A stretch of 64,000 nucleotides of DNA from Chiloscyllium plagiosum (taxonomy: Eukaryota), in contig NC_057719.1 in assembly GCF_004010195.1 (NCBI RefSeq), positions 18,497,159 through 18,561,158 on the forward strand, given 5' to 3'. Every line of letters starts with the position of its first letter. Positions within the stretch are counted from its first letter, which is position 1. Under the pieces are notes generated by a model. That model saw only the letters and a list, made by a program, of their open reading frames with translations. It was not told the origin of the DNA and searched no databases. The translations under genes and the position numbers were made by a program. Of this stretch, positions 5,627-60,579 are shown one piece after another.

Positions 5627-6499
5627 CAGAGTCATAGAATCATAGAGGTGTACAGCATGGAAACAGACCCTTCGGTCCAACCAGTCCATGCCGAACAGAT
5701 ATCCCAACCCAATCTAGTCCCACCTGCCAGCACCTGGCCCATATCCCTCCAAACCCTTCCTATTCATCTTCCCATCCAAATGCCTCTTAAATGTTGCAAT
5801 TGTACCAGCCTCCACCTCGTCCTCTGGCAGCTCATTCCATACACGTACCACCCTCTGAGTGAAAATGTTGCCCCTTAGCCTCTTTTATATCTTTCCCCTC
5901 TCACCCTAAACCTATGCCCTCTAGTTCTGGACTCCCCACCTCAGGGAATAGACCCTGTCTATTTACCCTATCCATGCCCCTCATAATTTTGTAAACCTCT
6001 ATATGGTCACCCCTCAGCCTCCGACGCTCCAGCGAAAACAGCCCCAGCCTGTTCAGTCTCTCCCTATAGCTCAGACCTTCCAACCCTGGCAACATCCCTG
6101 TAAATCTTTTCTGAACTCTTTCAAGTTTCACAACATCTTTCCAGTAGGAAGGAGACCAGAATTGCACTCAATATTCCAACTGTGGCCTAAACAATGTCCT
6201 GTACACCACAACATGACCTCCCAACTCCTGTACTCAATACTCTGACCAATAAAGGAAAGCATACCAAACTCCTTCTTCACTATCCTATCTACCTGCGACT
6301 CTACTTTCAAGGAGCTATGAACCTGCACTCCAAGGTCTCTTTGTTCAGCAATACTCCCTAGGACCTTACCATTAAGTGCATAAGTCCTGCTAAGATTTGC
6401 TTTCCCAAAATGCAGCACCTCGCATTTATCTGAATTAAACTCCATCTGCCAATTCTCAGCCCATTGGCCCATCTGGTCCAGATCCTTTTGTAATCTGAG
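5627..6499 (-). mobile_element. CR1 (HER1-like) LINE 3' fragment
   Basis: ORFs 6128-6472 and 5901-6167 give WQMEFNSDKCEVLHFG, QFWSP, LERVQKRFT and RRLRGD; tail shared with other copies. Confidence 0.95.
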
Positions 6500-8700: not shown

Positions 8701-9190
8701 AGGTGTGTACTGACTCTTTAAATAAAATCATAGTTTCATTCGAGATAAGTTTTAATAATTAACTGCAGCAGAGCAAGATGCACGGAGGTAAGAAGATGAT
8801 TTCAAAAAGGAAATTGAATAAGCATTTGGGGGAAATAAACTTTTAGCTCTATGGAAGTAGAAAGGGGAATTGGGACTGAACTGATTTCTCTAAAGAGAGA
8901 TGGAAAAGAATTGATATGTCAAATTATCATTTTTGCTTTATTACTGTGAGGACAGATACATTGGTTTGAGATTCAATCTTTGAGATTCAATTCAAGCTGA
9001 TTCCTACTTGTAAACTGAGTTGTAAGTGCAGCTTGAGGGTCAAGAATCATTGACAATCTTACACAGCCAAGTCGAAATGAGGCCTAAGTCATTTGAAGGA
9101 GAAAGTGAGGTCTGCAGATGCTGGAGATCAAAGTTGAAACTTTATTGCTGGAACAGCACAGCAGGTCAGGCAGCATCCAGGGAACAGGAG

Positions 9191-9226
9191 ATTCGACGTT
9201 TCGGGCACAGGCCCTTCTTCAGGAAT
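9191..9226 (-). ncRNA. Minimal type-I hammerhead ribozyme motif (PLE-type)
   Basis: rc = attc CTGAAGA a gggc ctgt gccc GAA ACGT C gaat; exact complement of 9585-9620. Confidence 0.8.
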
Positions 9227-9584
9227 GAGCAGAGAGTGTTCAGCAGGAGAAGATAAAAGGTAGGGAGGAGGGACTTGGAGGAGGGGAGTTGGAAATGTGA
9301 TAGGTGGAAAGAGGTCAAGGTGAGGGTGATAGGTCGGAGTAGGGTGGAGGCGGAGAGGTCAAGAAGAAGACTGCAGGTCAGGAAGGCGGTGCCGGGCTGG
9401 AAGGATCCTTCCAGCCCGGCACCGCCTTCCTGACCTGCAGTCTTCTTCTTGACCTCTCCGCCTCCACTCTACTCCGACCTATCACCCTCACCTTGACCTC
9501 TTTCCACCTATCACATTTCCAACTCCCCTCCTCCAAGTCCCTCCTCCCTACCTTTTATCTTCTCCTGCTGAACACTCTCTGCTC

Positions 9585-9620
9585 ATTCCTGAAGAAGGGC
9601 CTGTGCCCGAAACGTCGAAT
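9585..9620 (+). ncRNA. Minimal type-I hammerhead ribozyme motif (PLE-type)
   Basis: 4-bp stem I (attc/gaat), core CTGAAGA 9589-9595, stem II gggc/gccc, GAAA, palindromic ACGT stem III, GTC cleavage triplet ending at 9616. Confidence 0.8.
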
Positions 9621-10544
9621 CTCCTGTTCCCTGGATGCTGCCTGACCTGCTGTGCTGTTCCAGCAATAAAGTTTCAACTAAGTCATTTGAAGTCCTAGGA
9701 CATCACCATCGTACCTAAGTGTTGATGGCACCAATTCAATTGGAATCATGCAAGAGCTGAAAAGCAATCATTGTGTTGTGCAAAGACAGGACTTTGAAGT
9801 CTTATAAGATAATTTTCTAATACTAAGATAAGTCATAATTTTGGGGGAAGTTGGGGAAGGGGAGGAATCCAAGGTGAGGATAGGCCTAAAATTTCTTTCA
9901 AGTGCCTGGACCAACAAATATTGCTCCATCTGACTCAAATGAAAATCATGAAGAACCATATAAATTTGCTTTGCTGAATAGTCTGGGATCCATCACTGCC
10001 TAACCTACCAGGATGCACTTGACCATCAGTATGAATTGTGTGCTCTGGATGTCAAGATGGCCTTGGAGACCAAATGTCATGAGCTCTTGAATACTAATGA
10101 GGCTTTCATGTGCCTGCAAGCCCAGAAGTTAAAATAACAGCCCGTAGGACCAATGGGGAGGTCAATACCCAGATTATATTGTATGTGATTCGAATTCTCA
10201 TTAGGTAGGGGCAGCTGTGTTGGGAGGGCAGAGTGGTGGGAATTAAAACAAATGCCATTTAGCTGTACAATGTTATAAATGTTAATGCCTCTGTAGTCCA
10301 AAATGGAGCCAACTAGGGGAACTGGATATCAATACGTTCATTATCTGTGACTCAACACTGGGCAGTGCATCCTCTAAGTTATACACTTTGGTCTTAAGAG
10401 CTATTACAATTATAGTATGCTTCAAATCTGTTCTGTTGCTCATTTGGATCATTGTTCTTAGATTAACTCCATTTACCCACTATATTTGCATTTCCCTTAA
10501 TATTCCTGCCTAACAACAAACAAATTAAACAGTGCTTGGAAATT

Positions 10545-20368: not shown

Positions 20369-20707
20369 TCATAGAATCCCTACAGTGTGGAAGCAGGCTG
20401 TTCAGGCCATCACGTCCATACTGACCCTCTGAAGAGCATCCCATCTTGACCCAGCCCCCCACCCTATCCCTGTAACCTTGCATTTCCCACAGATAATCCA
20501 CCTAGCCTGCATATCTTTGGACGCTGTGGGTAATTTAGCATGGCCAATACATCTAACCTGCACAGTTTTGGACTGTGGGAGGACACTGGAGCACCTGAAA
20601 GAAACCCATGCAGACATGGCAAGAATGTGCATACTCCACCTGTGGGTAGAATCGAACCTGAGTACCTAGTGCTGTGAGGCAGCAGTGCTAACCATTGAGC
20701 CTGCCCC
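20369..20707 (-). mobile_element. HE1-type (V-SINE) tRNA-derived SINE
   Basis: rc contains tggttagcactgctgcctcacagc, a B box, the central domain (ctcccacagtccaaa...ttggccatgctaaatt) and a CR1-like tail. Confidence 0.9.
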
Positions 20708-22890: not shown

Positions 22891-25196
22891 ATTTGATATC
22901 GGAGGGTTGACAACCCTTGACAACCACAGGACGGTACAGGAAAGGGCATTGGTGTTCTCACCTCCACATTTGCAACTTGTGACTTAGCAAATCATTATCA
23001 ATTTAATAAAACTATACATGCCAAGATGCTGTGATCAATGCACACCATAGCTTATTGAGGGGAGTATCATTGAGAGGCATTTCCCCTTTCAGGAGACTGC
23101 AAGGTTAAAATGAAACTGTTTATGAATGGACATGTGGAAATGGGGATGGGCATTGTGGGTGGTATGGTGGCAGTTTTGTTTTTGTCCAGATGCCTGTGAG
23201 TTCATCTATATTTGCTGGCACTTTACAATCTTGGCCCTCACCCCCCCCCCCCCAATCTACAACTGAAAGAACAGCTTCTCCAAACAAAGCCAATTAAGGG
23301 TTAACCCTTTTACTGGGTCATATCACTTCTGGGCCGACGTGAAGGCACAGAGCTGGCAGATTGGCTGTTTTCTAATACATGAAACTGACACTTTCCATCA
23401 CTGAGGGAGATAGAGACACTGCAGGTGTGCTAGGCTGAACTCACACAGTGCCCCAGTGGAGAAATAACACTATGATAATTCATGCTAACATCTCACAGCA
23501 CAGGTTGACTCAAGGAGTTTTTTTTTTCTCTCTGGCGAGTGTCTCATGCTGTTTTCTCTGATTCCTGCTTCCTCGTTAACCCGAGCCTGGTCCATGCAAC
23601 ATCTGCGGGATCTGTACTATTAGCTTACACAGATTGAGGTGCCAGCCTAGGGATTTGGGGGCCAATAACATATGCAGATTGGGCCACGGAACAGCAAGGT
23701 AACTCGGTGGTTGGAGAGAGGGATAAAAAAAAGTGCTCTCTCATTTAGCTTCGGCCTACTACCTTCTGTTTGAATTCGATTAGATCTCAGAGCTATAAAG
23801 TCACAGGGTGGGGAGTTCTGTGTCATTACATTTCATGGCTCCTGTTTAAGGCCATTTGATTACAATATGGAAACACTTACAAGCAGCCGTTTGCAGATGT
23901 GTAAGGGAGCCTGCCGGCATTACGCTAAAATTGATTTGCTTAATATGGAACAAAACATTAACTTGTTCAGTGCCGAAATACCTTTCTTATTTGTGAGTGG
24001 GTTGGAGCAAGAAATAAATGTGATGGTAATTATTTTTAACAATCTTTAGCAAGACTTTCCTGGAAGCTACAGGGTGAGAAAATAATACTGCCTGGCCTGT
24101 CACACACTCCAAAGTAAATTTTACTCCTTTGTGCTCTGCTTTGTATCACTGCTTTCAATTGCAGTTGTGATTTTAAAATCTTCAGATGTATGTAGCTTTT
24201 CTAAATGTATGAAATGGCTGCCTGAATCATAGGCAAAAGTATTTTAAAATTCTAATTTTGCATTATTATATGTATCAAATATTCCTCTAAGGAAATTAAC
24301 TTTTATGAAGATGAGGTGATGATTGTAAACTGCTGGAGCTCATTTACGCCACCTCTCGATTGAATGGGTATCTTGTTATCCATTTCTAAGTAGCTGTTAT
24401 CCTCTGTGTGACTGCATGATGACTGTTGCATATAACAATAAGGTAAGCTTTCTGTCTGCCAAACATATTTCCATCATGCAGCATATGGTTTCACATTGTC
24501 TTAGGTTTCTGTCTTTGCTAGCCAAATGGAATAGACACAACAGAGTCAAGGGCACATACATAAGGCTTACATCTATGCTCCCATTAATTCATAGACATTT
24601 TAAGTTGCTAATGCCAGAAGATGGTGTTCTGATTTAGGATGTGTCAACTTGGAATGACCATTTGTATTTTCTTTAGAATGTGTATGGAATTTGCAATTTA
24701 TTTTAAGAATATTTGAAGGACTTTTATGGGATGGTGCTGATTATAACAGGAAAAGTCGTTATTTTCTTAGATAATAAGATACCAATGCATGTTACTTCAT
24801 GACCCTTGACCTGCAGACAGCGCCAACAGGAAGGAGATTAAGAATATATGGCTAAAACACGTGAAGCAAAGTTGCAAACGGACAGAGCTACAAAACTAAA
24901 GGGAGTGGAGGGAGAACACATATAAGTGCACAAAGAGAAAGCAGGCAAGAACAGAAAGAATAATGGAGAGATTGGTGTGAGGTAAAGAAGCAAAGGACTC
25001 TCAAGAAGAAAAGGAGACAGGATCACTTGGGGATACTATGCAAGCTGGTTAAAGAGGCTTAAAACCCGGAAAATCTTGTGATTATTTGGGAGACATTCAG
25101 GACCCAGGATTTAGCCCGACCAGATTTCTCTCTCTGAAGGAAATCAGAAGAGATTTAATGACAATCAACAATGGTTACAAAGTCACCACTATCCTA

Positions 25197-25322
25197 GAGT
25201 TACGATTAGGGTTAAGTTTAGGGTTAGGGTTAGGATTAAGGTTTGTGTAAGATTAGGGTTAGGGTTTGGGTAAGGGATGAGTTTAAAATTAGGGTTCGGG
25301 TAAGGGTTAGAGTTAGTGTTCA
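25197..25322 (+). repeat. Degenerate interstitial (TTAGGG)n-like tract
   Basis: About 20 hexamer-phase units, with several perfect TTAGGG and variants (ttagga, ttaagg, ttcggg, ttagag). Confidence 0.8.
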
Positions 25323-27139: not shown

Positions 27140-27625
27140 TTCATGTCGATAAGGGACAAAAGGGGTGACAAATGCTTACAAGTACAGGACATATGAGTAC
27201 TTTGCATCAGAGTTTACTAATAAAGAAAACATTAACAAAATATTATTAAGAAAAGAGATTCTAGAGGTTAATGAATGGGATGAAAACTGATCAGCAGAAT
27301 GTAACTGAAAGGCATGGATATACTGTCTGAACCAGATGGCTTGCTTCCCAAGGTTGCTAAGGGAAATTGGGAAAGTTCACTATTATTTTCCAATATCCCT
27401 TGTATATTGGAAAGGATCGGAAAGTGCCAAATGTAATACATTATTTCACAAAAGCGCTTTTCTGGTTTCTCCAGGCCAGTCACTTTAACCTTAGTGGCGG
27501 GTAAAATTTGAAAGACAATAATCAGGGGAACAAAATAACAAGCATTTAGAGAGTTCGGAGTTATTTAAGGAGACCCAACATGGATTTATAGAATGCAAAT
27601 TGTGTTTCATTAATCTTATTGAATT
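27140..27625 (+). mobile_element. Decayed CR1 ORF2 internal fragment
   Basis: Remnants of EYFAS.FT, PDG..P..L.E, RPV.LT.V.GK and QHGF...C..NLIEF. Confidence 0.7.
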
Positions 27626-27769
27626 TCAACTGGTTAAGCTGGGCCTGTGACCTTTCTGAAAATGTGTTGCTGGAAAAGCGCAGCAGATCAGGCAGCATCC
27701 AAGGAGCAGGAGAATCAACGTTTCGGGCATGAGCCCTTCTTCAGGAATGAGGAAAGTCCGATTTTCCTC

Positions 27770-27805
27770 ATTCCTGAAGAAGGGCTCATGCCCGAAACGT
27801 CGATT
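27770..27805 (+). ncRNA. Minimal hammerhead ribozyme motif, copy 1 of the tandem pair
   Basis: CTGAAGA 27774-27780, gggc-tcat-gccc, GAAACGTC ending at 27801. Confidence 0.75.
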
Positions 27806-27975
27806 TTCCTGCTCCTTGGATGCTGCCTGATCTGCTGCGCTTTTCCAGCAACACATTTTCAGCTCTGATCTCCAGCATCTGCAGTCCTCACTTTCTCCTC
27901 GAAGATTTTAACCTACTGCGAATCCTCTTGCAAGAATGCCTTCCTTGAAGAAGCTATCTTCCTCCCCCTTTCCTC

Positions 27976-28011
27976 ATTCCTGAAGAAGGGCTCATGCCCG
28001 AAACGTCGATT
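27976..28011 (+). ncRNA. Minimal hammerhead ribozyme motif, copy 2 of the tandem pair
   Basis: CTGAAGA 27980-27986, gggc-tcat-gccc, GAAACGTC ending at 28007. Confidence 0.75.
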
Positions 28012-29170
28012 CTCCTGCTCCTTGGATGCTGCCTGACCTGCTGCGCTTTTCCAGCAACACATTTTCAGCTCTGATCTCCAGCATCTGCAATCCTCACTTT
28101 CTCCTGTGACCTTTCTACTTATAACAAAATGGGTTGAGGAGAGATTCACTCCAGTGCTTAAGCGTATGATGTTTGGATAGGATTGCAAAAGAAGTGCCTT
28201 TCTCATTACCTGATTACACAAGGTGTAGGAGACACGCATTTGATGTTTCAGCCAAAAACAAATACAAGGAGGATGTGAGGGAAAATATTTTTATACAGTG
28301 AGCAGGAGCTGGAATTCACTATTTGTGAAAGTGAGGGCAATCAGTTATCTCAAAGGAAAATAGGATGGGCACTAAATGTGCAAAACAACATGAAGGGTGC
28401 AAGAAAATGAGGCAGACTGGATAACTCTACAGAGAACAGATCAATAGAGCAACTGGGATATTCTGCAATGACTCTCGGGGCTAACGTTTTTACCATTCTT
28501 CAGGTCAGTGACTCACTTCCGGTGAACAGGGAATGGGAATTAAGATTGAAGGTAGGAAGCTTGAAAGCTAAGCGGAGATGGTATAATTAGGGAGAAGTAC
28601 TTGGCTGCCATGCAAAGTAAGTAACTGGGAGGAGACTTGTCAGAGGATGCTTCCCAGCAACGTTTTAAAGTCTTAAACAAAAATTCAGAATAAGAAAAGC
28701 AGCCAGGCCACCGCTGGGCAGGAGTTTGTAAATCTATCTACAGCTTGGGTGTTTGGCGGGACTCTTACCCTGGCAGGTCTACCAGGAGAGGCCTGCCAGG
28801 CGTCACACAGTTTATCTGCCTCCTTACTATGAAGGAAGTTGGCAGCTCCCAGAAAATCCAAATCAGCATCCTAAACTTCTATTTCTCAATTCAGGTTCTA
28901 AATGATTGCCTGCTTCCATTTTGGGCAGGATGTGGATGTAATGCAGTCTTCCTGAGTCCTGAATCCTTCTCTTCCAAAATATCCAGCACAGGGATTGGAG
29001 GCCTACTACTGAAATGCAAGCCAGCATCAGTAACTACGGGATAAACCCTACATTCTATTCCTTTCCCAGCTGCAAAGGGCTTCATAAGGTCAGCCTTCTG
29101 TCTCTACCATTTGATGATCAATCTCCTGAACAGTATTGTAAGTAACTCAGAAGAAAACTCTTACAAACAA

Positions 29171-30129
29171 TAGAGTCATAGAGTCATAGAGATGTACAGC
29201 ATGGAAACAGACCCTTCGGTCCAACCCGTCCATGCTGACCAGATATCCCAACCCAATCTAGTCCCACCTGCCAGCACCCGGCCCATATCCCTCCAAACCC
29301 TTCCATAATCATATACCCATCCAAATGCCTCTTAAATGTTGCAACTGTACCAGCCTCCACCACATCCTCTGGCAGCTCATTCCATACATGTACCACCCTC
29401 TGTGTGAAAAAGTTGCCCCTGAGGTCACTTTTATATCTTTCCCCTCTCACCCTAAACCTATGCCCTCTAGATCTGGACTCCCCGACCCCAGGGAAAAGAC
29501 TTTGTCTATTTATCCTATCCATGCCCCTCATAATTTTGTAAACCTCTATATGGTCACCCCTCAGCCTCTGACGCTCCAGGAAAACAGCCCCAGCCTGTTC
29601 AGCCTCTCTCCGTAGCTCAGATCCTCCAACTCTGGCAACATCGTTGTAAATCTTTTCTGAACCCTTTCAAGTTTCACAACATCTTTCCGATAGGAAGGAG
29701 ACCACAATTGCATGCAATATTCCAACAGTGTCCTAACCAATGTCCTGTATAGCCGCAACATGACCTCCCAACCCCTCTACACAATACTCTGATCAACAAA
29801 CAAAAGCATACCAAACGCCTTCTTCACTATCCTATCTACCTGCAAATCCACTTTCAAGGAGCTATGAACCTGCACTCCAAGGTTTCTTTGTTCAGCAACA
29901 CTCCCTAGGAACTTACCACTCCCTAAGTCCTGCTAAGATTTGCTTTCCCAACATGCAGCACCTCGCATTTATATGAATTAAACTCCATCTGCCACTTCTC
30001 AGTCCATTGGCCCATCTGATCAAGATCCTGTTGTAATCTGAGGTAACCCTCTTCTCTGTCCACTACACCTCCAATTTTGGCGTCATCTGCAAACTTACTA
30101 ACTTACTTACCTCTTATGCTCGCATCCAA
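29171..30129 (-). mobile_element. CR1 (HER1-like) LINE 3' fragment
   Basis: rc contains KFADD (about 30080-30095), LERVQKRFT, RGHRFRV and WNELP; (tagagtca)n tail. Confidence 0.95.
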
Positions 30130-33244: not shown

Positions 33245-35050
33245 ACTTAATGCCCATAGGACATGCACTAAAACATCAACTGCTCACTGACATTTGAAAC
33301 ATATCTCATTTTCAGCAACAGTTTCTTCTACACAAATTTGGATGGCAATGATGGATGCTCCTCTCATGTATTTATTTGGCCAGATCTCCTTAAATACAGT
33401 GACCCTTCTTCCATGTCCATTTCTACCTATTGGTGTCCACTGCTATTTCAAGATCTACGTTTTGCCCTTTTTCATGGCATAAGAGGAGGTCCAGACTAAA
33501 GGTAAGTAGTAACCAGCCATATTTCAGGATGACTGGAAACTGGTCAGGATACGAAAGGTTGCTGTGTTGACAAGATATGGCACTGACTGAAATGATGGCC
33601 ATTGCTGGAAGGTGAAAAGCTGGATAAAGAGTAAATTTAGATAAATAGCCAAATCTGAGTGTTCAAAGGAGACCTCGCTTCTCCTGACAAAACAGATTTT
33701 TTCCTATATCTTTTTTAGCAACTGATCTGTTATAGCTGTTATTGTAAGACAGATTTTCCTGTAATAGGGCTCTGGGGAATTTATAAGTTACAATCGGCAA
33801 AGTGATTCAAACCCGCAGAATATATGCAATGTCATGTCAGTTGTTAGATCTGGGCACTATTCTCAGGGAGATTCATGAGGTCAACATTCTCTCCATCTGC
33901 CATTAACATGCGTGTGAAGAAGGGTCATGGGCCAAACTAGTGCATGGTATGGCAATTCAGAGAGCTAAGATTAGGACATTTATCTAAATTTCAGCTGGGT
34001 CAATTTGGCTAAAAAAAGTTTATGATAGAGATTATCTGAGGTTCATGACTAATCCTCATTCCAAAAATCTCTTAACAGTAGTCAAGGAGCTTCTTAACCT
34101 CTGTGAACAATATATAAACACATGAAAGACTTAAACATCATGGTAGAACATTGAATACAAAAGGGATGTTTACTGAGTGATCTAAGTAGACAGAAACCAC
34201 ACCTGCCTTTGTTGATATAACTTGTAAAGTCTGCTTTCCTCAGGAAGTATTTGTAAATGTAATTATCTGGTGCATCATCTCTTTTCTATCAGTTAAAAGG
34301 AGCATCAGTGATTCTTAAGCCTGAGGAAAAAAAGGCAGTTTCTGCTTGTCAGTTGATAAAAGAGTAAAATTTTGTGCATAAAAGTTTCTGCAATTTTATT
34401 TATTGAACATGTGTGATATTGTCCCCTTTGTATGCAACAAGTAACTGATACTCAGACACTAGTAGAACTCCAAACCTGATCCTGGTAGAGTTAACTAAGC
34501 TATGTTGGAGTCAAAGTAAATGTGCCCCTGAGTTAGAGGCATTGCTGAAACGTTTTGACTTGCACTCATCATCACAAATGCAAACATACCAAATTTCAAA
34601 CAACCATGACAAGTTACACTACAGGAGAAAATAAGGTTGATTGGTTGACAAGTCAGCCCTGATTGGCTGTGGCCTTGTCATGGGGAAAGAAAAGATGAAC
34701 GACAGTCTCCCCAAGTCTCTGGATAATTCAAAATAATTCAGGAGATAACACCACACCTTCAATGCAGTAAAATATTCTAACAAATTTCATAGGAGCCAGT
34801 ATTAAACAAAATTTGGCACTGAGCCATACATGATGACGATCAAAAGCTTGATCAAAGAAACGGGCTTTAAATAGCATCCTTGTGGGTGATGGTGAGTTGT
34901 GAGAGGCAGGGACAGTTAGGGTAGAAAGTCTAGAATTTATGGACCACATAGTTCAGGTCATGACAACAAAGTAGGAGCATTTAAAATTGACGATTCACAA
35001 GAGGCTAAAATTGGAGGATGTAAAAGATTTCAGATAAGATATTCCATGCA

Positions 35051-35180
35051 GGAGAAAGTGAGGACTATAGCTGCTGGAGATCAGAATCGAGAGTCAAGCA
35101 ATTCCTGATGAAGGTATTGTGCCCGAAACATCAATTGTCCTGCTCCTTGGATGCCGACTGATCGGCTGTGCTTTCTCGGC
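35051..35180. mobile_element. Penelope-derived insertion (family A) with one arm mostly deleted
   Basis: Antisense tail ggagaaagtgaggact...gagatcag joined to a sense hammerhead arm (ctgatga...gcccgaaacatc). Degenerate direct repeat aagatattccatgca / aagatgttctatgca (35036-35050, 35181-35195). Confidence 0.8.
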
Positions 35181-35212
35181 AAGATGTTCTATGCAACTAG
35201 CTCAGCAATTCT

Positions 35213-37545: not shown

Positions 37546-37827
37546 ACTGCATAAGTCTTTATTTCCTTCTTTCCCTCACTCACTCACTCTCTTTTTCTCT
37601 CTCTCTCTCTATCCTTTGTTATTTCTTTCTTCCTCCTCATGTCAATGTTAAGTGCTTCTGCAGGTATTTCTAGCCTCAACTGTTTCTAAGGCCTTGTAAT
37701 TAAGACTCACAGGCTGTTAATGGGTATTGGCAAACAGAAGATCCAGAATAGATTTGGACTCGAGGTGGGGTGTTGAAGCTATTGAAACAGTGCCTGATGC
37801 TGCTGTGACTTTGGAATTGCTAACCAG

Positions 37828-38730
37828 TCATAGTTTCATAGAGTTGCACATCATGCAAACAGATCCTTCAGTTCAACTCATCCATGCCAGTCCAGATATC
37901 CTAAATTAATCTGGTCCTTCTAATGCCTTCCTATTCATGTACACATCCAGATGCCTGTTAAATTGTGTGGCTGTACCAGCCTCCACCACTTCCTCTGGCA
38001 CACATGCACCACCCTCTGTGAGGAAAAGTCACCCCTTCGGTCCCTTTCTCACCTTAAACCAATGCCCTCCAGTTTTGAACTTCCCTGCCATGGGAAAAAG
38101 AGCTAACTATTCACTCTATCTATGACCCTCATGATTATATAAATATCTGTAATGGTCACCCCTCAGCCTCTGATGCTCCAGGAAAAATAGCCCAAGACTA
38201 TTTAACTTCTCCTTACAGCTCAAACACTCCAACCCTGGCAACATCATGGTAAGTCCTTTCTGAACCCTGTCAAGTTTCACAACATCCTTCCCATAACAGG
38301 AAGACTAGAATTGCACACAATAATCCAAAAATGGTCAAACCAATGTTCTGTACAGCTGGAACATGACATCCCAACTCCTATACTCAATGTATTGACCAAT
38401 AAAGGTGAGTGTGCCAAACCCCTTCTTCACTACCATGTCTACCTGTGAATCCACATTCAAGGAACCGTGAACCTACGCCCCAAGATCGCTTTGTTCAGCA
38501 GCACTCCCAGGCCCCGACATTTAAGCGTGTAAGCCCTGATCTGAATTGCCTTAACAAAATGCAATACCTCACATTTATCTAAACTAAACTCCATCTGCCC
38601 ATTGGCCCATCTAATCGAGGTCCCATTGTACTCTGAGATAACCTTCTTCACTGTTCACCAGACCACCTATTTTGGTGTCATCTGCAAACGTACTAAACAT
38701 TCCTCCTATATTCACATCCAAATCATTTAC
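37828..38730 (-). mobile_element. CR1 LINE 3' fragment
   Basis: rc gives FADDTK (about 38672-38690) and QMEFSLDKCEVLHF; typical tail. Confidence 0.9.
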
Positions 38731-38916: not shown

Positions 38917-40432
38917 GGGGCCTCTTGCTGAGATATTTCTGTCATCGATAGTTACAGGTGAGGTGCGGGAAGACTGGAGGTTGGCAAACGTGGTGCCACT
39001 GTTTAAGAAGGGCGGTAAAGACAAGCCAGAGAACTATAGACTGGTGAGCCTGACCTCGGTGGTGGGCAAGTTGTTGGAGGGAATCCTGAGGGACAGGATG
39101 CACATGTATTTGGAAAGGCAAGACTGATTTGGGATAGTCAACATGACTTTGTACATGGGAAATCATGTCTCACAAACTTGATTGAGTTTTTTGAAGAAGT
39201 AACAAAGAAGATTGATGAGGGCAGAGCAGTAGATGTGATCTATATGGACTTCAGTAAGGCGTTCGACAAGGTTCCCCATGGGAGACTGATTAGCAAGGTT
39301 AGATCTCATGGAATACAGGGAGAACTAGCTATTTGGATACATATCTGGCTCAAAGGTAGAAGACAGAGGGTGGTGGTGGAAGGTTGTATTTCAGAGCGGA
39401 GGCCTGTAACCAGTGGAGTGCCGCAAGGATCGGTACTGGGCCCTCTACTTTTAGTCATTTACATAAATGATTTGGATGCGAGCATAAAAGGCACAAATAG
39501 TAAGTTTGCAGATGACGCCAAAATTGGAGGTGTAGTGGACAGCGAAGGTGGTTACCTCAGATTACAATAGGATCTGGACCAGATGGGCCAATGGGCTGAG
39601 AAGTGGCAGATGGAGTTGAATTCAGATAAATACGAGGTGCTGCATTTTGGGAAAGCAAACCTTAGCAGTACTTATACACTTAATGGTAAGGTCTTCGGGA
39701 GTGTTGCTAAACAAAGAGACCTTGGAGTGCAGGTTCATAGCTCCTTGAAAGTGGAGTCGCAGGTAGATAGGATAGTGAGGAAGGCATTTGGTATGCTTTC
39801 CCTTATTGGTCAGAGTATTAAGTACAGGAGTTGGGAGGTCATGTTGCGGCTGTACAGGACATTGGTTAGGCCACTGTTGGAATATTGTGTGCAATTCTGG
39901 TCTCCTTCCTATTGGAAAGACGTTGTGAAACTTGAAAGTGTTCAGAAAAGATTTACAAGGATGTTGCCAGGGTTGGAGGATTTGAGCTATAAGGAGAGGC
40001 TGAACAGGCTGGGGCTGCTTTCCCTGGAGCATCGGAGGCTGAGGGGTGACCTTATAGAGGTTTACAAAATTATGAGGGGCATGGATAGGATAAATAGACA
40101 AAGTCTTTTCCCTGGGATCGGGGAATCCAGAACTGAAGGGCATAGGTTTAGGGTGAGAGGGGAAAGATATAAAAGAGACCTATGGGGCAATGTTTTCATG
40201 CAGAGGGTGATATGTGTATGGAATGAGCTGCCAGAGGATGTGGTGGAGGCTGGTACAATTGCAACATTTAAGAGGCATTTGGATAGGTATATGAATAGGA
40301 AGGGTTTGGAGGAATATGGGCCGGGTGCTGGCAGGTGGGACTAGATTGGGTTGGGATATCTAGTCGGCATGGACAGGTTGGACCGAAGGGTCTGTTTCCA
40401 TGCTGTACATCTTTATGACTCTATGACTCTAC
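38917..40432 (+). mobile_element. CR1 (HER1-like) LINE, 1.5-kb 5'-truncated copy with a nearly complete RT pseudogene
   Basis: ORFs 38861-39127, 39178-39570 and 39583-40344 give [29 protein letters not shown] and FADD. One frameshift (about 39120) and one in-frame TAG (39568-39570); (atgactct)n tail. Confidence 0.97.
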
Positions 40433-41236: not shown

Positions 41237-41690
41237 AGTTAAAAATCACACAACATCAGTCCAAAAGCTTGTATCTCCAAATAACTCTGTTCGACTATAA
41301 CCTGGTTTTGTGTGATTTTTTTTAACTTTGTCCACCCCAATCCAATACCAGCACCTGTTGGGCAGCACAGTGACTTAGTGGTTAGCACTACTGCCTCACA
41401 GCATCAGGAACCCGGGTTCGATTCCAGTCTTGGGTGACTGTCTGTGTGGAGTTTGCACATTCTCCCCATGTCTGTGTGGGTTTCCTCTGGGTGCTCTGGC
41501 TTTTTACCCACAATCCAAAGATGTGCAGGTCAGGTGAATTGGCCATGCTAAATTGGCCGTAGTGTTAGGTGCAGTAATCAGAGGGAAATGGGTCTCGGTG
41601 AGTTACTCTTTGGGGGGGTTGGTGTGGACTTGTTGGGCTGAAGGGCCTGTTTCCATACAGTAGGGAATCTAATCTAACCTCTACATCATG
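41237..41690 (+). mobile_element. Family-B short element with an HE1 SINE inserted in its tail
   Basis: gttaaaaatcacacaaca / tgtgtgattttttttaac arms; tail split as ...ccagcacct [HE1] cctctacatcat. Confidence 0.8.
41358..41677 (+). mobile_element. HE1-type SINE
   Basis: A box, B box gggttcgattcc, central domain and (taatc)n tail. Confidence 0.93.
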
Positions 41691-41740: not shown

Positions 41741-41945
41741 AGCTGAAAATGTGTTGCTGGAAAAGCGCAGCAGGTCAGGCAGCATCCAAGGAACGGGAGA
41801 ATCGACATTTCGGGCATAAGCCCTTCTTCAGGAATGCCCGAAATGTCGATTCTCCTGTTCCTTGGATGCTGCCTGACCTGCTGTGCTTTTCCAGCAACAC
41901 ATTTTCAGTTCTGATCTCCAGCATCTGCAGTCCTCACTTTCTCCT
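41741..41945. mobile_element. Penelope-derived palindromic insertion (family A)
   Basis: Antisense arm with a full hammerhead (about 41800-41835), sense arm starting in stem II, 35-nt tail. Flanked by ctttctttcattcta (41727-41741, 41944-41958). Confidence 0.92.
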
Positions 41946-55347: not shown

Positions 55348-56875
55348 AAATGAGGAGGGTTGAGCTGTTCTGATAAAGTTTACCTCCTGAAGAAAGTTCA
55401 GAATATCAAAGCTGCCCATTAATTGAATCTTTGGTAGTTTGTCATTGGAGCTTCACCCTCACGATTTAACCCCTCGATGAGTTGTGATGAAAAACAAAGC
55501 GTTTCACCTATGACTCATTGTCTGATTCATCTTCCGACTGATTCAATGGTAAGTAGCAGTAAACATTCTCACAGAGAAATCCAAGAACCTTTGCTTCTCT
55601 ACATCACTATAGATTCCAACAATAATACATTTCACCCCCGTTACCATTCATTTCAGTATTTTGTGTGTCATTCTGAAGTATGTTCAACAGCGAATGTGTT
55701 ATAAAAAGAACAAAGAAAATTTACAGCCCAGGAACAGGCCCTTCAGCCCTCCAAGCTTGAGCCGATCCAAATCTACTGTCTAAACCAGTCGCCCAATTCC
55801 TAAGCATCTGTATCCCTCTGCTTCGCACCTACTCATGCATCTGTCCAGACGCACCTTAAATGAATTTACCGTGCCTGCCTCTATTACCTCTGCTGGCAAC
55901 GCTTTCCAGGCACCTATCACCCTCTGTGTAAAGGACTTTCCACGTGTATCCCCCTTAAACTTTTCACCTCTCACCTTGAACGCATGACCTCTCATTATTG
56001 AATCCCTCACCCTGGGAAAAAGCTTATCTCTATCCACCCTGTCTATGCCCTTCATGATTTTGTAAACCTCAATCAGGTCACCCCTCAATCTCCTTTTTTC
56101 TAATGAAAACAATCCTAACCTACTCAACCTCTCTTCGTAGCTAGCACCTTCCATACCAGGCAACATCCACGTAAATCTTCTCTACACCCTCTCCAAAGCG
56201 TCCACATCCTTTTGGCAATGTGGCAACCAGAACTGTACACAGTATTCTAAATGCTGCTGAACCAAAGTCTTGTATAATTTTAACATGACCTGCCAGCTCT
56301 TATACTCAATACCCCATCCGATGAAGGCAAACATACCATTATGCCTTCTTGACCACTCTTTCCACCTGTGCAGCCACCTTTACGGTACAATGGACCCGAA
56401 CTCTCAGATCTCTCTGCTCATCAACTTTTCCCAAGGCTCTTCCATTTACAGTATAGTTTGCTCTTGAATTGGACTTCCCAAAATGATCACCTCACATTTG
56501 CTCGAATTGAACTCAATCTGCCACTCCTCCGCCCAACTCTCCAGTCTATCTGTATTCTTTGACAGTCCCTATACGGTCTGCTGCTCCACCAATCTTCGTG
56601 TCATCTGCAAACTTACTGATTAGACCAACAGTGCCCTCTTCCAGATCATTTATGTATATCACAAACAACAGTGGCCCCAGCACTGACCCCTGTGGAACAC
56701 CACTGGTCACCTTTCTCCATTACGAGAAACTCCCTTCAACTACTACTCTCTGTCTCCTGTTGCTCAAACAGTTCTTTATCCACCTAGCGAGAACATCCTG
56801 CACACCATGTGACTTCACTTTCTCCATTAGTTTACCATGGGGAACCTTATCAAATGCCTTACTAAAGTACATGTA

Positions 56876-57493: not shown

Positions 57494-57830
57494 TATATGA
57501 TATCTACAACCCTTCCTTCATCTATCAACTTAGTCACTTACTCATAGAACTATATTAAGTTGCTAAGGCACGATCTCCTCCACACAAAACCATGTTGTCT
57601 ATTGCTGATAAGCCCATTCTTTTCCAAATATAAAAAGATTTTATTCCCCAGTACCTTCTCCAGCAACTTTCCCACCACTGCGTCAGGCTCAATGGTTTGT
57701 AGTTACCTAGAATCTCCCAACTACCCTTCTTGTACAGGGGGAAAGTGAGGACTGCAGATGCTGGAGATCAGAACTGAAAATGTGTTGCTGGAAAAGCGCA
57801 GCAGGTCAGGCAGCATCCAAGGAGCAGGAG

Positions 57831-57866
57831 AATCGACGTTTCGGGCATGAGCCCTTCTTCAGGAAT
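57831..57866 (-). ncRNA. Minimal hammerhead ribozyme motif in the PLE 3' UTR
   Basis: rc = attc CTGAAGA a gggc tcat gccc GAA ACGT C gatt, on the PLE sense strand. Confidence 0.8.
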
Positions 57867-59000
57867 GAGGAAAGTGTGCCAAGCAGGCCAAGATAAAAGT
57901 TAGGGAGGAGGGACTTGAGGGAGGGGCGCTGGAAATGCGATAGGTGGAAGGAGGTTAAGGTGAGGGTGATAAGGTGAGGGTGATAGTCCAGAGTGGGGGT
58001 GGAGGCGGAGAGGTCAGGAAGAAGATTGCAGGTTAGGAAGGTGGTGCTGAGTTCGAGGGTTGGGACTGAGACAAGGTGGGGGGAGGGGAACTGAGGAAAC
58101 TGGAGAAATCTGAGTTCATCCCTTGTGATTGGAGGTTTCCTCGGCGGAAGATAAGGCGCTCTTCCTCCAGCTGTCGTGTTGCTATGGTCTGGTGATGGAG
58201 GAGTCCAAGGACCTGCATGTCCTTGGTGGAATGTGAGGGGGAGTTGAAGTGTTGAGCCACGGGGTGGTTGGGTTGGTTGGTCTGGGTGTCCCAGAGGTGT
58301 TCTCTGAAACGTTCCGCAAGTAGGCGGCCTGTCTCCCCAATATAGAGGAGGCCACCTCGGGTGCAGCGAATGCAGTAAATTGTGTGTGTGGAGGTGCAGG
58401 TGAATTTGTGGCGGATATGGAAGGATCCTTTGGGGCCTTGGAGGGAAGTAAGGGGGGAGGTGTGGGCGTAAGTTTTGCATTTCTTGCGGTTGCAGGGGAA
58501 GGTGCCGGGAGTGGAGGTTGGGTTGGTGGGGGGTGTGGACCTGACGAGGGAGTCGCGGATGGAGTGGTCTTTTCGGAATGCTGATAGGGGAGGGGAGGGA
58601 AATATATCCCTGTTGGTGGGGTCCGTTTGGAAGTGGCGGAAATGACGACGGATTAGACGATGTATATGGAGGTTGGTGGGGTGGTAGGTGAGGACCAGTG
58701 GGGTTCTGTCCTGGTGGTGTTTGGAGGGGCGGGGCTCAAAGGCGGAGTTGCGGGAAGTGGAGGAGATGCGGTGGAGAGCATCGTTGATCAACTCTGGGGG
58801 GAAATTGCGGTCTTTGAAGAAGGAGGCCGTTTGGGCTGTTCGGTATTTGAACTGGTCCTCCTGGGAGCAGATACGGCGGAGATGAAGGAATTGGGAATAT
58901 GGGATGGCGTTTTTACAAGGGGCAGGGTGGGAGGAGGTGTAGTCTAGGTAGCTGTGGGAGTCGGTCAGTTTATAGTAAATGTCCGTGTTGATTCGGTTGC

Positions 59001-59334
59001 ATTACATTACATTACATTACAGTGTGGAAACTGGCCCTTCGGCCCAACAAGTCCACACCGACCCGCCGAAGCGTAACCCACCCATACCCCTACATTTACC
59101 CCTTACCTAACACTATGGGCAATTTAGCATGGCCAATTCATCTGACCTGCACATCTTTGGACTGTGGGAGGAAACCAGAGCACCCGGAGGAAACCCATGC
59201 AGACACGGGGAGAACGTGCAAACTCCACACAGTCAGTCACCTGAGGCGGGAATTGAACCCGGGTCTCTGGCGCTGTGAGGCAGCAGTGCTGACCACAGTG
59301 CCACCGTGCTGCCCACTGCCACCGTGCCGCCCAC
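59001..59334 (-). mobile_element. HE1-type SINE inserted in the PLE ORF
   Basis: Full HE1 with an (attac)n tail and a short duplicated head (gccaccgtgc.gccc twice). Confidence 0.95.
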
Positions 59335-60579
59335 ATAGATAGAAATGGAGAGGTCTAGGAAGGGGAGGGAGGAGTCTGAGACAGTCCAGGTAAATTTGAG
59401 GTCGGGGTGGAAGGTGTTAGTAAAGTGGATGAACTGTTCAACCTCCTTGTGGGAGCATGAGGCAGCGCCGATACAGTCATCGATGTAGCGGAGGAAAAGG
59501 TGGGGTTGGTGCCAGTGTAGGTGCGGAAGATGGACTGTTCCACATATCCTGCGAAGAGGCAGGCATAGCTGGGTCCCATGCGGGTGCCCATGGCTACTCC
59601 TTTGGTTTGGAGGAAGTGGGAGGATTGGAAAGAGAAGTTGTTCAGAGTGAGGACCAGTTCAGTCAGTCAAAGGAGGGTGTCAGTGGAAGGATACTGGTTG
59701 GTACGGCGGGAAAGGAAGAAGCGGATGGCTTTGAGTCCTTCGTGATGGGGGATGGAGGTGTACAGGGACAGGATGTCCATGGTGAAGATAAGACCGGGGA
59801 AGCGAAAATCATGGAGGAGGTGGAGTGCGTGAGTGGTGTCCTGAACGTAGGCTGGGAGTTCTTGGACTAAGGGGGACAGGACCGTGTTGAGGTATGCAGA
59901 GATGAGTTCGGTGGGGCAGGAGCAGGCTGAGACAATGGGTCGGCCGGGGCAGTCAGGTTTGTGGATTTTGGGCAGGAAGTAGAAACAGGCGGTGCGAGGT
60001 TGTGGGATTATGAGGTTGGAGGCGGTGGATGGGAGATCCCCTGAGGAGATGAGGTTATGGATGGTCTGGGAGATGATGGTTTGGTGGTGGGAGGTGGGGT
60101 CACGGTCAAGGGGGCAGTAGGAGGAGGGGGACAACATGAGCAACCCTCCAGTCCTCTGCCACTTCACCTGTGTTTAAGGATGCTACAAAGATAGCTGTCA
60201 GGGCCCCAGCTATTTCCTCTCTTGCCTCCCTCAGCAACCTGGGATCCCCAGCAATCTGGTCCTGGGGATTTGTCCACTTTAATATCCTTTAGCCTATCCA
60301 ACACATCTTCCCTCCTTATGTTAAAGTGATCCAGAGTAAACAAACTTCTATCTCTAATCTCAACATTCATCAGGTCCCTCTCTTCAGTGTGCACTGATGC
60401 AAAGTAATCATTGAGAATCTCACCCATTTTCTCAGGTTTGACACAGAACCCTCCTTGCTTGTCCTTTAGTGAGCAATATAAATTATAAATTTGCATAAAC
60501 ATGAATAAAAAAGAGCACGAAGTGAGAAGGAAGATTTGAATGTATACTAGTGAGGTGTGCAAATAAGATAGAGATATAA

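Follow-up and report, generated by a model that had tools for sequence, protein, structure and literature searches.

A 459-base insertion in the window (the whole 64-kb stretch of DNA that was analysed) is one copy of an abundant shark Penelope-like element (PLE), as seen from its target duplication, its unit boundaries, the identity of its spacer and its family membership. The insertion holds the ribozyme-bearing front end of the element, the pLTR, three times, once inverted and twice in tandem sense orientation, in the order inverted pLTR, pLTR, 69 nt from the start of the element body, second pLTR. It is probably inert, a by-product and not a self-cutting mini-element that spreads. We regard it as a well-preserved instance of an insertion pattern already known, and its value lies in its mechanistic footprint. 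Unit starts 12 or 13 nt upstream of the hammerhead core, a letter shared by the inverted arm and the first sense copy, and target bases that match the ends of the tail would fit two-site, two-strand priming combined with a template jump, and the same footprint speaks against a role of the ribozyme cut in defining the template.

Anatomy and target site

The features of the insertion, together with a longer copy of the parent family found elsewhere in the window, are as follows.

27644–27657, plus strand: left target-site duplication (TSD), 14 bp; its last 2 bases are the first of the inverted arm (from the repeat comparison and the empty site of organism B)
27656–27758, minus strand: inverted pLTR without the 37-nt tail; minus-strand hammerhead core from 27744, cut triplet GTT
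27759–27760, no strand assigned: fold-back centre; the G at 27760 is absent from the long relative copy
27761–27899, plus strand: sense pLTR copy 1, beginning 13 nt upstream of the hammerhead core
27774–27801, plus strand: minimal hammerhead core 1 (CTGAAGA, extra A, 4-bp stem II, GAA, ACGT palindrome), predicted cut after 27801
27863–27899, plus strand: PLE tail, 37 nt, present in the sense units and not in the inverted arm
27900–27968, plus strand: start of the parent body, 69 nt, with the ORF ATG at 27936 (MPSLKKLSSS); 27935 and 27956 differ from the family majority
27968–28105, plus strand: sense pLTR copy 2, beginning 12 nt upstream of the core; tail at 28069–28105
27980–28007, plus strand: minimal hammerhead core 2, predicted cut after 28007
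28103–28116, plus strand: right TSD; its first 3 bases are the last of the tail
57738–60113, minus strand: parent-family copy of 2.4 kb, 5'-truncated and broken, with remnants of RT and GIY-YIG; 3' end 97–98% identical to the sense units

Our comparison agreed with the initial annotation in every coordinate it had given, and placed the 69-nt spacer at 27900–27968. The direct repeats (27644–27657 and 28103–28116) are 100% identical, the inverted arm at 27656–27758 is 97% complementary to 27760–27862 and 98% to 27968–28068, and the sense units at 27763–27899 and 27969–28105 share 98% identity at an offset of 206 nt. The tandem extends over only 1.67 units, and Tandem Repeats Finder, run with parameters unlike those of bioRxiv 10.64898/2026.07.22.740005, reported no 206-nt array here.

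A single contig from organism B (run X9, record 17) runs from 27450–27643 straight into 28103 and so presents an empty site with one copy of the 14-mer. This empty site identifies the 14-mer as a genuine target duplication. The organism B flanks differ from the window at 24 of 439 aligned bases (about 5% divergence), and organism A contigs (records 1 and 8) cross both outer junctions with no differences, run X1 possibly being the source sample. Since the four compared units differ from one another at few sites, the insertion is younger than the split between organisms A and B. Five of the 14 duplicated bases are also part of the element, namely CCT of the tail end and CT of the arm end, and these overlaps suggest short primer–template pairing at both RT start sites. 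We also note that the TSD has three bases in common with the outer tail end and two with the inner, and that the overlaps at 41743 and 9097 seem similar.

The window as a whole has a vertebrate, repeat-rich character, and among named proteins the nearest are those of carpet sharks (Chiloscyllium punctatum and Hemiscyllium ocellatum). No host gene was recognised among the open frames of at least 62 aa between 10 and 48 kb, a search that short exons would escape and in which one of the 136 frames had a Pfam match, to a LINE reverse transcriptase.

Parent family and hammerhead motifs

The initial annotation had suggested that the spacer may be the 5' start of the parent element, and this was borne out both by its protein match and by its abundance as family sequence. 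From the ATG at 27936 the spacer reads MPSLKKLSSS, which is identical to residues 1–10 of protein P0235 from Hemiscyllium ocellatum (10/10) and departs from it at residue 11. P0235 was retrieved with a profile of 11 PLE N-termini; it gave no alignment with the RT region, and its link to the family is that N-terminal profile together with the ten-residue match. A loose form of the motif is found in 58 of 320 collected proteins, nearly always at or near the N-terminus. In all three DNA runs the summed contig depth over the spacer reaches about 2e5–5e5 vs 2–25 over the flanks, a depth that is not a copy number, and the contig depth likewise marks the pLTR-to-spacer junction as high-copy. As a separate observation, P0235 (XP_060689572.1) is annotated as 'mucin-2-like'; given its PLE ORF N-terminus, it is probably a misannotated PLE copy.

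Searches with spacer patterns gave 0 matches in viral_contigs, and the one match in metagenome_contigs was rejected as a chance 20-mer with unrelated flanks. The letters at 27935 and 27956 were tried as a bound on copy number, with non-majority depths at the two positions of 61 and 54 (run X1), 513 and 408 (X7) and 238 and 64 (X9). This bound was dropped because X9 lacks the insertion and yet shows such depth, which is then mostly noise; the letters may in addition post-date the insertion.

The pLTR unit matches 11 other places in the window, and one of these, the copy at 57738–60113, ties it to the coding part of a PLE, with a GIY-YIG domain (PF01541, E 1.5e-05) and RT pieces 83–88% identical to protein P0021. 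In the frame at 58033–59001 of this copy a CX4CXX(C) linker motif is present with its last C changed; the motif is intact in P0072 and P0001 and is shared by Neptune and Nematis, for which PMC8557442 lists a CX4CXXC-type linker before the endonuclease. The insertion combines a pLTR that in its family is linked to RT and GIY-YIG, a partial tandem that includes the ORF start, an inverted pLTR with a one-sided tail, and a TSD confirmed by an empty site, as endonuclease-positive PLEs do, and the earlier view of it as a non-autonomous derivative of a PLE with minimal type-I hammerheads was supported. Penelope-like elements have been described as expanded in the whale shark (bioRxiv 10.1101/443036). 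In the literature covered, which for the most part left out subscription journals and lay outside Repbase, we found no account of this shark family or of a spacer-to-pLTR junction of this type; the supplementary tables of bioRxiv 10.64898/2026.07.22.740005 may list the family.

The same arrangement is familiar from other animals. In PMC3846280 a rotifer element is reported whose two pLTRs are accompanied by a neighbouring inverted pLTR, 37 bp shorter, and by a tail and a TSD; the paper also has an Adineta vaga derivative of the same layout with an internal deletion. According to PMC8557442, PLEs typically show partial tandems, a 5' copy in inverted orientation and a tail of 30–40 bp. With the insertion units of these endonuclease-positive PLEs (PMC3846280, PMC8557442) the shark insertion has in common two direct pLTRs flanking body sequence, an inverted neighbour that lacks 37 nt of the pLTR, a tail on one side only, a TSD and a pLTR-borne hammerhead. 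It differs from those described there in that its body is cut down to 69 nt and that its right breakpoint lies where the other units have their 5' start. The other full fold-back copies in the window (at 41743, 53523 and 9097) all three have an arm that ends at +87/+88 and a sense unit that runs to about +124 from the core. Since the anatomy of inverted arm plus tail is thus the ordinary PLE pattern and recurs in 3/3 window copies, it lends no support to a retrozyme reading.

Both sense cores are intact by pattern match, as had been noted initially, with GTC triplets ending at 27801 and 28007: CTGAAGA begins at 27774 in the first core and at 27980 in the second, with GAAACGTC ending at 27801 and 28007, respectively. 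In the inverted arm the cut triplet is GTT, not GTC. A generic core pattern matched the window 8 times vs 0.00 expected from 100 shuffles. The motifs have the core bases of minimal PLE hammerheads, an unpaired base after A9, the G10.1–C11.1 pair and a palindrome at 15.2–16.2. Stem I reads C-G, U-A, U.U, A-U in both pairings and hence offers 3 pairs in 4 positions; this U.U mismatch is a family trait, being present in 7 of the 12 window motifs, and four contiguous pairs occur in 2/12.

PMC4209133, which defines the minimal hammerhead of metazoan PLEs, reports weak cleavage in vitro, low activity as dimers, and a 2-bp helix I in D. virilis. The shark motif resembles that minimal hammerhead in its CUGANGA and GAAA cores, in the unpaired base before stem II, in G10.1–C11.1 and in the palindromic ACGU that replaces helix III, and differs from the form described there in its 4-bp stem II and in a stem I of 3 pairs in 4 positions with U.U. 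Rfam gave 0 matches at the gathering score over the whole window, and around the locus 20 weak matches, mostly of microRNA-precursor models fitting the hairpin, with no hammerhead family among them. Two further motifs of the form CTGAAGA...GAAAC, at 2767 (minus strand) and 50751 (plus strand), have a longer inner spacing and are unrelated to the shark pLTR; they may belong to another hammerhead family or be due to chance.

Release of a 206-nt monomer

The initial annotation had further proposed that the two sense cores form a retrozyme-like unit that excises 27802–28007. This proposal is disfavoured by the unit ends, by the letter at +57, by the ordinary PLE anatomy and by the 0.001 predicted for the active register. 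A nested double-hammerhead geometry is possible for the two cores. In a transcript free of the arm, the predicted core pairing gives 0.67 for a UCGA register in which the cut site is buried vs about 0.001 for the active ACGU register, and constraining the RNA to the active fold is predicted to cost 18 kcal/mol without the inverted arm and 68 with it, in a folding model that treats hammerhead cores as plain loops, is uncalibrated on a known active dimer, and gives a robust result for the arm effect only.

The inverted arm had also been held to block copy 1. The arm is predicted to pair with either sense copy, at nearly equal energies (-206.0 and -202.6 kcal/mol). Because the arm would bind either copy almost equally, a read-through transcript would lose the dimer in cis whichever copy is blocked.

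Retrozymes are defined in PMC7229834 by canonical hammerheads and by abundant, highly paired circles. The contacts between loop 1 and loop 2 that go with the canonical hammerhead of that account are lacking here, where there is no helix III loop and helix I is weak, and the 206-nt monomer is not highly self-paired, being no more structured than its shuffles (z -0.93 as a linear RNA; z -0.59, with 56% paired, as a circle). A broader view is taken in bioRxiv 10.64898/2026.07.22.740005, which admits minimal motifs, derives retrozymes from pLTRs and reports them in the 1 chondrichthyan genome it includes. Set beside the non-LTR retrozymes of these two accounts (PMC7229834; bioRxiv 10.64898/2026.07.22.740005), the insertion shares tandem type-I hammerheads, a spacing of 206 nt, 49% G+C, a long TSD, the absence of coding capacity and a PLE-related sequence, and differs in its minimal hammerheads, its 1.67 units, its inverted arm and its weakly structured monomer.

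In an organism A single-cell poly(A) library, a weak test that cannot show circles or start sites and of which about 2% was read, none of the 17 reads at 27935 and none of the 7 at 27956 carried the letter of the locus, all having the family letter, and the 2423 records placed showed no pile-up of starts or ends and no read from the flanks. Published data on related ribozymes include the Xenopus dimers of bioRxiv 10.64898/2026.07.22.740005, with cleavage in 1/9 and no product in 8/9, and the anole PLE ribozyme, which according to PMC11167929 cleaves RNA only with protein and for which that report shows no RNA-seq ends at the cut.

Origin of the insertion and its surroundings

Relative to the first base of the core, the units start at -13 (arm), -13 (copy 1) and -12 (copy 2). 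Copy 1 is preceded by a G (27760) that has no counterpart in the long copy and is possibly a copied RNA cap, seen in this one case only. Among the seven insertions of the window with a definable 5' end, four start within 15 nt of the core and none at the cut (+28), and the remaining three begin at -197, -492 and about -2250, the longest having no TSD that we could find. At +57 the arm and copy 1 have T, and copy 2 and the long copy have C; T at 27806 and 27831 mark copy 1. Together, the starts at -12/-13 and the letter of the arm and copy 1 favour a template jump by the reverse transcriptase over the copying of a 206-nt circle: the shared T fits an arm and copy 1 drawn from one RNA segment and a copy 2 drawn from another, and a single circular template would give one letter at +57 in all three units, so the split argues against a circle. 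The shared T could instead stem from conversion between the hairpin arms. Joints within the tail that go back by 33 nt were present in each of the three DNA runs (5, 8 and 4 contigs), as judged from the best 15 of 1013 joints, and at 4–8 contigs per run they indicate that jumps or re-priming are not rare in this shark PLE family.

We therefore consider it probable, with room for doubt, that reverse transcription stopped just upstream of the hammerhead, that the enzyme jumped 69 nt into the body and that the head was then copied again, leaving a copy that is probably inert. By analogy with the anole element, the reverse transcriptase would nick both DNA strands and start at two neighbouring RNA sites, which would be the points where the 37-nt tail begins and ends. 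From the outer site, synthesis would run through copy 2 and then, once the enzyme had jumped, through the spacer and copy 1; from the inner site, with priming by the other strand, it would produce the tail-less inverted arm out of the RNA segment of copy 1. The stop may have been the 5' end of the RNA; alternatively, the enzyme may have paused within the 3' pLTR of a full-length RNA, and the insertion would then be a deletion made during reverse transcription. Under either variant the hammerheads would be passengers, and the unit ends would not be set by them.

The model for these steps is PAc, the Poseidon PLE of Anolis carolinensis, for which PMC11167929 reports that both strands are cut and extended, that two internal RT start sites bound the tail, and that ribozyme cleavage is not required. 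The shark family resembles PAc in having a hammerhead near the start of the ORF; its tail ends lie 61 and 98 nt after the cut, compared with a main RT start at about 85–92 nt in PAc, and its ATG lies 135 nt after the cut, compared with 26 nt before it in PAc (PMC11167929). A further difference from PAc as described there is the CX4CXXC-type linker that precedes the endonuclease in the shark family. The mechanism is hence borrowed across clades, from a Poseidon-clade element to a family with a Neptune/Nematis-type linker, and is read together with a 5'-end tally of n=7.

Several other origins would leave much of the same pattern. The source element may already have had a short tandem head (pLTR, 69 nt, pLTR, body) that spread as ordinary PLEs do, with the junction at several loci and no ribozyme cycle, and this we hold to be unlikely. 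Every boundary would fit such a source equally well, the difference at +57 would be that between the two pLTRs of one source, and non-autonomous PLEs with head-to-tail insertions are known (PMC8557442), but the 64-kb window holds no second copy of the spacer, and no such joint occurs among the best 15 of 1013, the latter being a weak objection since the junction sits in the reference. The loss of about 3 kb from a full-length pLTR-ORF-pLTR insertion by a later DNA repair deletion would also explain the difference at +57 from two original pLTRs, and PMC3846280 describes a rotifer PLE of the same layout with a microhomology-mediated internal deletion; we judge it quite unlikely here, since the right breakpoint and the starts of copy 1 and the arm lie no more than 1 nt apart, a coincidence that a random deletion would rarely produce, and the TTCCTC present on both sides of the 27968/27969 junction is kept twice and not merged. 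A misassembly of this high-copy repeat that created the internal tandem is extremely improbable: no contig piece spans the internal 27968/27969 junction among the matches listed (24 of 314,508 pieces), but the outer junctions read cleanly in organism A contigs, the three units have distinct letters and the target duplication is exact.

It is unlikely that the insertion is a retrozyme-like unit whose dimer in cis excises 27802–28007 as a mobilisable RNA, linear or circular. Its two intact cores, the feasible nested geometry, a spacing of 206 nt that falls within the 170–400-nt range of metazoan retrozymes (PMC7229834) and the proposed pLTR origin of retrozymes (bioRxiv 10.64898/2026.07.22.740005) speak for such a unit, and a transcript from an internal promoter, of the kind reported for Penelope (PMC8557442), would omit the antisense arm if it began at 27761. 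Weighing more heavily are the mere 1.67 units, unit ends that lie off the cut site, the copies' different letters at +57 and the ordinary structure of the monomer, together with the weakness in vitro of minimal PLE hammerheads (PMC4209133), the 8/9 Xenopus dimers without product and the anole report's lack of RNA ends at the cut site; no read of the poly(A) single-cell run had the insertion's letters. A very unlikely variant would make the locus a retrozyme at birth, in which the jump duplicated the PLE head plus 69 nt, a transcript from 27761 was cut twice with the help of protein to give a 206-nt circle, and the PLE enzyme then produced tandem arrays from it. For the anole enzyme PMC11167929 reports a need for about 54–61 nt beyond the RT start, which corresponds to 146 nt past the cut; copy 1 and the spacer extend 167 nt past the cut and, by this analogy, may keep the full enzyme recognition signal, unlike solo pLTR stumps. 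Were this variant true, the locus would show stepwise how non-LTR retrozymes arise from PLEs, and if the junction were multi-copy and the 206-nt RNA real, it would offer a testable PLE–retrozyme intermediate.

Around the insertion, the window contains further PLE copies and other repeats. A perfect fold-back PLE insertion with a 14-bp TSD lies at 9097–9679 and has a hammerhead in both arms; with four contiguous stem I pairs, these are the best-formed motifs of the window. A PLE fragment at 35050–35182 has the reversed arrangement, with an inverted tail-only piece followed by a tail-less sense unit. The parent-family copy at 57738–60113 is split at about 59000–59317 by a repeat of about 320 bp, SINE-like by size, which also occurs at 41359, 49671 and 55006 and, in a more worn state, at 20400, 32920, 45261 and 63600. 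Truncated LINE copies are found at 5628–6499, 29171–30129, 37826–38729, 39040–40431 and 55705–56535, with mutual identities of up to 90–92%, and an RVT_1 domain at 39040–39567 lies inside the copy at 39040–40431. Finally, a degenerate interstitial telomere-like (TAGGGT)n array of about 21 copies occupies 25195–25320 of the window.
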